Shown one piece after another: positions 31,713 through 39,109 of a DNA stretch of 64,000 bases. Below the pieces are notes generated by a model, which saw only the letters and a list, made by a program, of their open reading frames with translations, was not told where the DNA came from and searched no databases. The translations under genes and the position numbers were made by a program. The stretch spans positions 496,001-560,000 of the forward strand of contig ML978127.1 in NCBI GenBank assembly GCA_010015805.1, written 5' to 3'. The stretch comes from Rhizodiscina lignyota. Its lineage: Eukaryota. Every line of letters begins with the position of its first letter. Position 1 is the stretch's first letter.

Positions 31713-32740
31713 ATGAATCCAGAGTGGTACGTAACCTTATCCGCCCTCACTACCGCCTTGGTGCTCGCCCTGCACCACCCTCACGCCTGAAATAAGAGCA
31801 AATACTGACTGTGACGAGTGCAGAGTACCTTGATTTCATAAACACCGAGCAAACGTTACTCTACGAAGCATGCGGCGGCCGATCTTGCGACTGACCTTTC
31901 ACTTCACTCAGATACGACTACCTCTTCAAACTCCTCCTCATCGGTGATTCCGGTGTGGGCAAGTCTTGCTTGCTCTTGCGGTTCGCCGATGACACCTACA
32001 CTGAAAGCTACATCTCGACGATCGGCGTGGACTTCGTATGTCTCGAAATTCAAATGAGATCTCTTGGCGATGGAGGCTTACGGGGCACAGAAAATCAGAA
32101 CCATTGAACTGGACGGTAAGACAGTGAAGCTTCAGATCGTGAGTGGTCCATCAAGAAGATAAGAGAAGAGACAGTAGCTGATTGTCGGATGCAGTGGGAT
32201 ACAGCCGGCCAAGAACGCTTCCGCACCATCACATCATCGTACTACCGCGGCGCACACGGTATCTGTGTCGTCTACGATGTCACGGATATGGACTCGTTCA
32301 ACAACGTCAAGCAGTGGCTGCAGGAGATCGACAGATATGCCACCGAGGGCGTGAACAAGCTTCTTGTGGGCAACAAGTCGGATATGGCGGACAAGAAGGT
32401 GGTTGAGTACACAGTGGCAAAGGTACTGTAACATCCATTTCCCCACAGATCAGAGCCTTGTATTACGTCCTAGCAGGATCACGATCAGCGCAAAACAAAG
32501 AAAGATCTTGCTGCAACAGCATTGTTGACACACAAACTTGGACAGGAGTTCGCGGACAGCCTCGGCATCCCCTTCCTTGAGACCTCAGCGAAGAACGCCT
32601 CCAACGTCGAACAAGCCTTCTTGACTATGGCGCGGCAAATCAAGGAGCGCATGGGCAACACGGCGAGCCAGAACAAGGAGAAGATCAACATCGGCCAGGG
32701 ACAGAGCGTGCAGTCTGGGTCGGCGGGAGGCTGCTGCTAA
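31713..32740 (+). CDS. YPT1: Rab1/Ypt1 small GTPase
   Basis: Exons 31713-31723, 31912-32035, 32091-32138, 32195-32422 and 32546-32740 give [41 protein letters not shown] and C-terminal GGCC. Confidence 0.98.
31724..31911 (+). other. Putative [D3,4] spliceosomal twin intron (stwintron) in YPT1
   Basis: Inner intron 31727-31823 (GTACGT..TACTGAC..CAG) interrupts the outer donor GTG|AGT. Outer branch GACTGAC at 31889-31895 and acceptor CAG ending at 31911. Confidence 0.85.
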
Positions 32741-38435: not shown

Positions 38436-38870
38436 ATGACGACCGCCGCTGCAATGCCCAAAGCCTGCTGTGGGAAGGGTGATGGAACCTGCGTATGCGC
38501 CGCCGAAGCGAAGTGCTCTTGTGGCAAGAACTCAGCACTCCACTGCGATTGTGAGAAGTCGGCAACCGAGAATACGGTCGCAGGTGCTACGTGTTCATGT
38601 GGTATGTCTCGTCTCCAATTTGGCTTCGAATTCGTCACTGACTGATGGAAAAGGTCAGCGTGCGGCAGGCAAATGTACCTGCAGCAGATCGGCAACCGAG
38701 AACTCGGTCAGTGGAGCGACGTGTGCTTGTGGGAAGAGGGAGAAGGGTGAGTTCTAGATGCAATACGATGTGAATCTAACACTGACGGTCTTGAAGGCGC
38801 CTGCACTTGCGATGGGGCAGAAGTCGGTGGCGCAAGGGCGGAAGAGATTGATTTCACGACGAGAAAGTGA
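38436..38870 (+). CDS. Cys-rich metallothionein-like protein (Crd2-like copper resistance)
   Basis: Exons 38436-38601, 38654-38746 and 38797-38870. CC and repeated CxC motifs, a duplicated CxCxxSATENxVxGATCxCG module and C-terminal EIDFTTRK. Confidence 0.88.
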
Positions 38871-39109
38871 TCTAGCAACGATGGTGGTTTAGATGAGGCT
38901 TTCCATTGCATTCGGGATGATCGATACGATACTGGTTCGAAAGGGATTTGGACGGAACGGGTAACCTGTATTCTTAGACCTCTTTTTTCTGGTTTACGAT
39001 GGCAGATTTGGACTATGTACACCGAAACACTAAAAAATACTACAAGGAGTTCTCCAATCCAAAAACGCCGAAGCTCCAATTATCCAGTACGGTATTGGTG
39101 TCCATTCTT

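Follow-up and report, generated by a model that had tools for sequence, protein, structure and literature searches.

Within a stretch of 64,000 nucleotides (nt) of the Rhizodiscina lignyota genome (assembly GCA_010015805.1, contig ML978127.1, forward-strand positions 496,001 to 560,000; hereafter the window), the gene at window positions 31713-32740 is, judged from its sequence, the orthologue of Rab1/Ypt1 (ypt1), and its first intervening sequence is laid out as one intron set inside the donor site of another. The coding sequence was built by a script that joined the five exons at the coordinates of table 1. It comprises 606 nt and encodes 201 amino acids, starting with MNPEYDY and with a single stop codon at its end. 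A Pfam search assigns three of the exons to the Ras family (E values of 8.1e-13, 1.8e-28 and 8.9e-07). When exon 4 is compared with solved structures in the PDB, Rab-1A (3.7e-40) and YPT1 (8.7e-37) are the top matches, and the next family is Rab-10 (5e-26). The assignment to Rab1/Ypt1 is based on these matches together with the Ras fold, the P-loop GDSGVGKS, the WDTAGQE motif and the C-terminal cysteine pair of GGCC. In yeast, YPT1 is an essential gene.

Table 1. Features of the ypt1 gene in the window (positions are those of the window)
Feature	Position	Strand	Details
Exon 1, coding part	31713..31723	+	ATG AAT CCA GA; phase-2 end within the Glu-4 codon
Outer donor, first 3 nt	31724..31726	+	GTG, read from the sequence
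Inner intron, 97 nt	31727..31823	+	donor GTACGT 31727-31732; branch TACTGAC 31803-31809 (A 31808); CAG 31821-31823
Outer donor, last 3 nt	31824..31826	+	AGT; with 31724-31726 gives GTGAGT
Remainder of outer intron, 88 nt (91 nt including GTG)	31824..31911	+	branch GACTGAC 31889-31895 (A 31894); CAG 31909-31911
Exon 2	31912..32035	+	A + 41 codons, to ...GVDF; P-loop; Pfam Ras PF00071, E 8.1e-13
Intron 2, 55 nt	32036..32090	+	GTATGT..CAG
Exon 3, 16 codons	32091..32138	+	join based on coordinates
Intron 3, 56 nt	32139..32194	+	GTGAGT..CAG
Exon 4, 76 codons	32195..32422	+	WDTAGQERF...; Pfam Ras E 1.8e-28
Intron 4, 123 nt	32423..32545	+	weak donor GTACTG after AAG; roughly double introns 2 and 3 in length
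Exon 5, coding part	32546..32740	+	ends ...GGCC, then TAA

The sequence between exons 1 and 2 measures 188 nt (31724-31911), and the conserved N-terminus needs A31723 joined to A31912. The outer site at 31724 reads GTGGTA in its unprocessed state and is preceded by the exon end GA, while a strong donor, GTACGT, lies 3 nt further downstream. This second donor opens a 97-nt intron, and computing its removal fuses GTG (31724-31726) and AGT (31824-31826) into GTGAGT. Such an arrangement had been put forward in a preliminary description of the gene, whose coordinates and signals were all re-derived by script and read exactly as it gave them. Three properties place the sequence in class [D] of the nested introns known as stwintrons. 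The inner intron possesses a canonical donor, branch and acceptor of its own; its position splits the 6 nt of the outer donor, a site that is non-consensus before the removal; and a separate branch and acceptor serve the outer intron, whose excision leaves the flanking exons in frame. The split falls between the third and fourth nt of the outer donor, which corresponds to type [D3,4]. If the inner intron alone is removed, the product reads MNPE-stop. The same reading results from a splice between the inner donor and the outer acceptor, in which case GTG is kept.

A relaxed [D3,4] pattern, written in the style of fuzznuc, was run on the window and on 30 dinucleotide shuffles. It matches the window twice (at 31724 and 38599), compared with a mean of 0.3 matches per shuffle (n=30). 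The match at 38599 is a false positive, which covers, in a small cysteine-rich gene, a pair of ordinary introns together with the exon that separates them. Two other candidates within the ypt1 sequence were set aside. The first is an alternative inner acceptor, GAG at 31816-31818, whose use would make the joined donor GTGTGC and leave the mature mRNA unchanged; GAG is a disfavoured type of splice acceptor and the CAG downstream yields the consensus donor, and we retain the former as a minor possibility. A GAG located a few nt upstream of the CAG can also be found in several relatives. The second is an internal ATG at 31870, whose frame differs from that of exon 2.

Evidence from RNA comes from relatives of R. 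lignyota. Runs X1, X2, X4 and X5 share 5-7% of sampled words at 80% likeness, and their contigs derive from relatives and match at the level of exons. Contigs of all four runs skip the 123-nt intron 4, and some also lack introns 2 and 3; in run X5, for example, the intron 2 skip joins 32034 to 32091, with 56 letters skipped and 1 other letter between. Since intron 4 is skipped, the contigs are spliced and thus derive from the RNA of related fungi. Directly before 31912, the contigs of these relatives read ...ATGAATCCNGA. The preceding sequence in X1, X4 and X5 has the form ...ATGAATCC[A/C]GA (80-95% alike), with the variants ...ATGAATCCAGA or ...ATGAATCCCGA in the same three runs. By contig, X1 (six contigs), X4 (two) and X5 (two) show ...CATCATGAATCCAGA, ...ATGAATCCCGA or similar before 31912-31913. 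These letters indicate that, in the mature message of the relatives, CCNGA is followed directly by the A/G of the Glu codon. With no contig covering 31560-31887, the junction data are silent on the route by which splicing takes place.

Orthologous loci were collected by scanning metagenome contigs, with an AG required directly before the exon-2 codons that follow the Glu codon, that is, with an intron at the identical position. The scan yielded at least 111 loci, and all orthologue counts given here are among the matches listed. A complete exon 1 (ATG..CCNGA followed by GT) is present in 97 of the 111 loci, in the form ATGAAYCCNGA in 94, ATGGTCACCCCAGA in two and ATGCAGCCTGA in one. Another 11 loci were left out because the contig ends too close upstream; in six of these (L018, L032, L070, L072, L080 and L084) a mid-sequence YAG followed by AGT can be recognised by eye. 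Locus L060 has no recognisable exon 1, yet a mid-sequence TAG followed by AGT is present. Two matches, L053 and L085, were rejected: they encode an N-terminally extended Rab (MSTSEKQKLMDDSDDE...) that lacks the intron and runs straight into R-YDYLFK..., and they fitted the scan pattern through an AGR that encodes Arg there. The resulting set contains 84 distinct intervening sequences, including that of the window, with lengths of 145-313 nt, and no complete orthologous sequence falls below 145 nt.

Comparison of the ypt1 first introns at these metagenome loci bears out the nested arrangement of the preliminary description. The core layout, exon/GTN/GTNNG...mid-sequence CTRAY...YAG/NGY (slashes mark splice boundaries), is present with its diagnostic parts in 79 of the 84 distinct sequences, and in 53 of 58 clusters formed by single linkage at 70% identity. 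A stricter parse, in which a consensus outer branch must lie 8-40 nt from the end, retains 68/84. The inner acceptor was also located blindly: beginning from a mid-sequence CTRAY, the nearest AG at a distance of 9-30 nt that was not part of GAG was taken, and the letters downstream of it were ignored. This gave 88 acceptors (one sequence with none, 78 with one and five with two), and NGY follows 79 of them (AGT 56, AGC 12, TGT 5, CGT 3, GGT 3). At offsets slid from -12 to +12 nt, the NGY count drops to 0-16/88. Shuffles of the interior show the layout in 50 of 168,000 cases, and shuffles that keep the first 9 nt, and with them the inner donor, in 4,261 of 164,000. The strict consensus of the stwintron authors (GURWGY throughout) fits 17/84 sequences end to end, the window not among them, owing to the frequent GTACGT and GTGCGT donors of this set; the relaxed pattern used in its place fits 57/84.

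In size, both introns fall within the range usual for short introns. The median is 88.5 nt (54-183) for the inner and 98.5 nt (66-188) for the outer one, either half being some one to two times as long as introns 2 and 3 of the window (55 and 56 nt). The branch-to-AG distance of 15 in the inner intron of the window is the modal value (22/68). The first 3 nt of the intervening sequence are GTA in 49 sequences, GTG in 29, GTC in five and GTT in one, and they equal the next 3 nt in 34/84, which resembles a tandem copy of the donor start. Global identity between the intervening sequences is low, with a median of 0.58 and a best match to the window of 0.66. The 41-residue peptide of exon 2 is identical in 80/80 loci, with third codon positions 56% identical (median). 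Thus, interiors and synonymous sites have diverged with the layout kept, and the splice signals have outlasted everything else.

The strength of the donors can be judged against other introns of the same loci. The earlier view of GTGGTA as a poor donor is in line with this comparison: 82/84 sequences carry T at +5 of the direct, unprocessed outer hexamer, as opposed to G at +5 in 151 of 152 GT donors of introns 2 and 3 (158 control sites were looked at, six of them without intron 2). In the same controls, GTACGT is the commonest donor (43/152), and position 3 is A or G in 146/152. The joined donors of the 68 parsed sequences are GTAAGT (22), GTGAGT (19), GTAAGC (7), GTCAGT (5), GTGAGC (5), GTATGT (4), GTACGT (3), GTAGGT (2) and GTGGGT (1). 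GTGGTA is thus unlikely to work directly, because it has no G at +5 and follows the poor exon end GA.

From the combination of these data, we consider with good confidence that the first intervening sequence of ypt1 is a donor-split [D3,4] stwintron, removed inside-out in two steps. The nested parse is favoured because no other parse built on canonical signals leads to the conserved N-terminus. From the layout, we infer the intermediate and the order in which the steps take place. In the first step, the spliceosome would define the inner intron by GUACGU at 31727, the branch A at 31808 and the CAG ending at 31823, and would join G31726 to A31824, with ...CCAGAGTG/AGTACC... as the predicted intermediate. 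This join would create the consensus donor GUGAGU, which is absent beforehand. In the second step, GUGAGU, the branch A at 31894 and the CAG ending at 31911 would define the 91-nt outer intron, whose removal would join A31723 to A31912 and complete the Glu-4 codon of MNPEYDY. Such inside-out removal would proceed by intron definition, as in other stwintrons. Only the complete two-step path would be expected to yield Ypt1, both partial products ending after MNPE, and the two ordered steps are very probably obligatory for this intron.

A number of observations weigh against this reading. Five of the 84 sequences (L052, L092, L066, L090 and L045) do not have the core layout. In L052 and L092 the joined donors would be GTAAGA and GTTAGA, respectively. 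In L066 (286 nt) the inner donor begins 2 nt in, GT/GTGAGT...CAG/ATGT, which is [D2,3]-like, and in L090 (173 nt) it begins 5 nt in, GTATG/GTATGT...TAG/T, which is [D5,6]-like; in both, the direct donor still has G at +5 (GTGTGA and GTATGG), and one-step removal is possible. L045, on a contig of 1,055 nt, reads TATCGAG where its incomplete close relative L080 reads TATAGAG, and has lost the inner acceptor; it could be an assembly error, a pseudogene or dead copy, or a case of a different splicing route. Eleven further sequences possess only a degenerate outer branch (CTCAC, CTAAG, CTTAC etc.). The five GTC sequences yield GTCAGT, and C at +3 occurs in 0/152 control donors and 1/42 intron-4 donors. 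Donors without G at +5 do exist at intron 4, both in the window (GTACTG) and in 12/42 orthologues. The breadth of conservation, moreover, is gauged by divergence and not by named clades. As to intron 4, its donor follows AAG, a far better exon end than the GA of the first site. Introns 2 and 3 also follow poor exon ends, yet they have G at +5 in 151/152 cases, and we infer from these sites that exon-side and intron-side donor strength may compensate each other.

The direct donors of L066 and L090 would also suit a scenario in which both routes are used, mainly the two-step one but with a real one-step share. A precedent is found in Lipomyces starkeyi, whose nested [D6,7] sequence can be removed either way, according to PMC7138796. 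In L. starkeyi, however, the outer donor is intact, whereas in ypt1 it is split after nt 3 and has no G at +5 in 82/84 sequences. The conserved NGY after the inner acceptor likewise says that the two-step route carries the function, and we regard a mixture of routes as unlikely.

It is very unlikely, in our view, that the sequence is an ordinary 188-nt intron, removed in one step from the weak donor GTGGTA, with the nested signals being incidental. Its GT start and AG end would give the correct protein, intron-4 donors work without G at +5, and L045 is apparently without a usable inner acceptor. Nevertheless, one-step removal leaves unexplained the excess of NGY after the mid-sequence acceptor over the slid offsets (79/88 versus 0-16/88), the full donor placed exactly 3 nt in (79/84) and the 145-nt minimum of the complete sequences, and the direct site would pair poorly on both sides, with GA at the exon end and T at +5. 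Hardly credible is regulated unproductive splicing, in which the inner donor would be joined to the outer acceptor and the resulting MNPE-stop product would tune Ypt1, productive splicing taking place in another way: distal-site 'missplicing' is documented for [D1,2] stwintrons (PMC12403724), and the GTA or GTG of 78/84 sequences would give TAA or TGA, but a purine at donor position 3 is the rule in any case (146/152 controls), and the scheme needs neither the mid-sequence acceptor nor the NGY, yet both are conserved.

If the [D3,4] stwintron is accepted, its persistence also calls for comment. One could envisage that it is ancient and kept as a built-in gate on Rab1/Ypt1 output, and is not merely a frozen accident. 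Every partly processed form would stop at codon 5 and remain silent, and Ypt1 dosage would thereby be tied to the capacity of the spliceosome. We consider such a gating role unlikely.

The founding description of stwintrons is said to be that of Flipphi et al. in 2013 (Fungal Genet Biol). The types in print, as far as the available text of the papers goes, are [D1,2], [D2,3], [D4,5], [D5,6], [D6,7], [D7,8] and [A2,3] (PMC12403724, PMC9024468, PMC8469720, PMC7138796, PMC6616335, PMC5639578, PMC5587772). The preliminary description had listed [D1,2], [D2,3] and [D5,6] as described types; these are indeed in print, but the list was incomplete, given that [D4,5], [D6,7] and [D7,8] appear in PMC7138796. 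Nearly all described stwintrons belong to [D1,2], other types being rarely met (PMC12403724, 2025). For other donor nestings, inside-out removal in two steps has been demonstrated by reverse transcription PCR, as stated in PMC7138796, PMC5587772 and PMC6616335. The earlier remark that a [D3,4] split is not commonly described agrees with the stwintron literature examined: this type is not named in the available text of the papers, type names with a comma being unsearchable and the founding 2013 paper and the supplementary tables lying outside the scope. Among the papers listed by a full-text literature search, none combines 'stwintron' with ypt1, Rab1 or rabO, and the terms ypt, Rab and GTPase do not occur in PMC9024468, PMC8469720 or PMC6616335. 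Within the literature examined, the [D3,4] split assigned to ypt1 is a donor-nesting position not yet described.

The closest counterparts of the ypt1 sequence are the bioDA [D2,3] stwintron of Sordariomycetes and the [D1,2] stwintrons (lipS, DHA1 antiporter) of Flipphi, Fekete, Ag, Karaffa and Scazzocchio. In these, as in ypt1, the 6-nt donor of a U2 intron is interrupted by a second, canonical U2 intron. The donor of the outer intron likewise comes into being only once the inner one is removed, and the position is kept across orthologues of a housekeeping gene in which loss of splicing would be harmful (PMC5639578, PMC5587772). They differ from ypt1 in the place of the split, which in ypt1 lies between donor nt 3 and 4. 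Use of the distal sites would also have a different outcome, with 3 nt, and thereby a stop codon, retained in frame in ypt1 in place of a +1 frameshift. According to PMC5587772, [D1,2] stwintrons are always mis-annotated, since the sequence starts with GGT. Unlike these, the ypt1 [D3,4] sequence starts with GT and ends with AG, so gene callers predict the mRNA correctly without revealing the nesting.

A second group for comparison includes the [D5,6] stwintron of rtnA, a reticulon-like gene of Pezizomycotina, and the [D4,5], [D6,7] and [D7,8] stwintrons of Lipomyces. These resemble ypt1 in being the first intervening sequence near the start codon, old and widely kept. Several nesting offsets occur at one position in this group, and in ypt1 too (offset 3 in 79/84 sequences, 2 in L066 and 5 in L090). 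The tandem copy of the donor start in ypt1 (34/84), together with the offsets 2, 3 and 5, fits the donor-duplication model of 'stwintronisation', as presented in PMC7138796. The offset in ypt1 is nevertheless a different one, and the host gene is an essential and extremely conserved GTPase. In addition, the ypt1 intron interrupts a conserved codon and not a disordered N-terminal extension.

More distant parallels exist outside the stwintrons. The twintrons of the Euglena gracilis plastid, to which the stwintron literature also refers, consist of group II and group III introns, which are self-splicing and organellar. There, as in ypt1, the inner intron interrupts an element needed for excision of the outer one, which forces the order and stabilises the pair; the chemical context differs, and there is no relationship to the ypt1 sequence. 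Recursive splicing of long introns in Drosophila and vertebrates makes use of ratchet sites (zero-length exons), the upstream part being removed first from the intact donor at the exon end. A ratchet site carries a whole new donor (AG/GTAAGT). Both recursive splicing and the route proposed for ypt1 involve consecutive spliceosomal reactions and a 5' splice site regenerated at the junction. In ypt1, however, the first reaction would start 3 nt inside the intron, and the donor would be assembled from two halves. Recursive splicing is mentioned as a class separate from stwintrons in PMC5587772 and PMC6616335.

In nature, the clearest proof that fungal spliceosomes work by pairing sites across the intron, and that a fixed order can be imposed on them, comes from stwintrons. 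In this context, the ypt1 case would fill the [D3,4] gap among the described donor offsets. At least 53 sequence-unrelated versions keep the layout, which makes it an unusually old and stable example, and the essential gene that hosts it has the same exon-2 peptide in 80/80 loci. It could serve as a model for the order of splice-site use, for the origin of nested introns by donor duplication and for the limits of weak-donor rescue. It further suggests that nesting can hide behind a correct GT...AG annotation, and that other GT-preserving offsets may be under-counted in fungal genomes.

Two minor observations concern neighbouring sequences. Intron 2 is absent in 6/79 orthologous loci, where AAGATC runs on after ...GAYTTY while the nested first intron is kept; intron 2 was thus lost or never gained in some lineages. 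Elsewhere in the window, the cysteine-rich gene at 38437-38871 (MTTAAAMPKACCGKGDGTCVC...) is interrupted by two short introns, carries the internal repeat SATEN.V.GATC.CG and is metallothionein-like in appearance.

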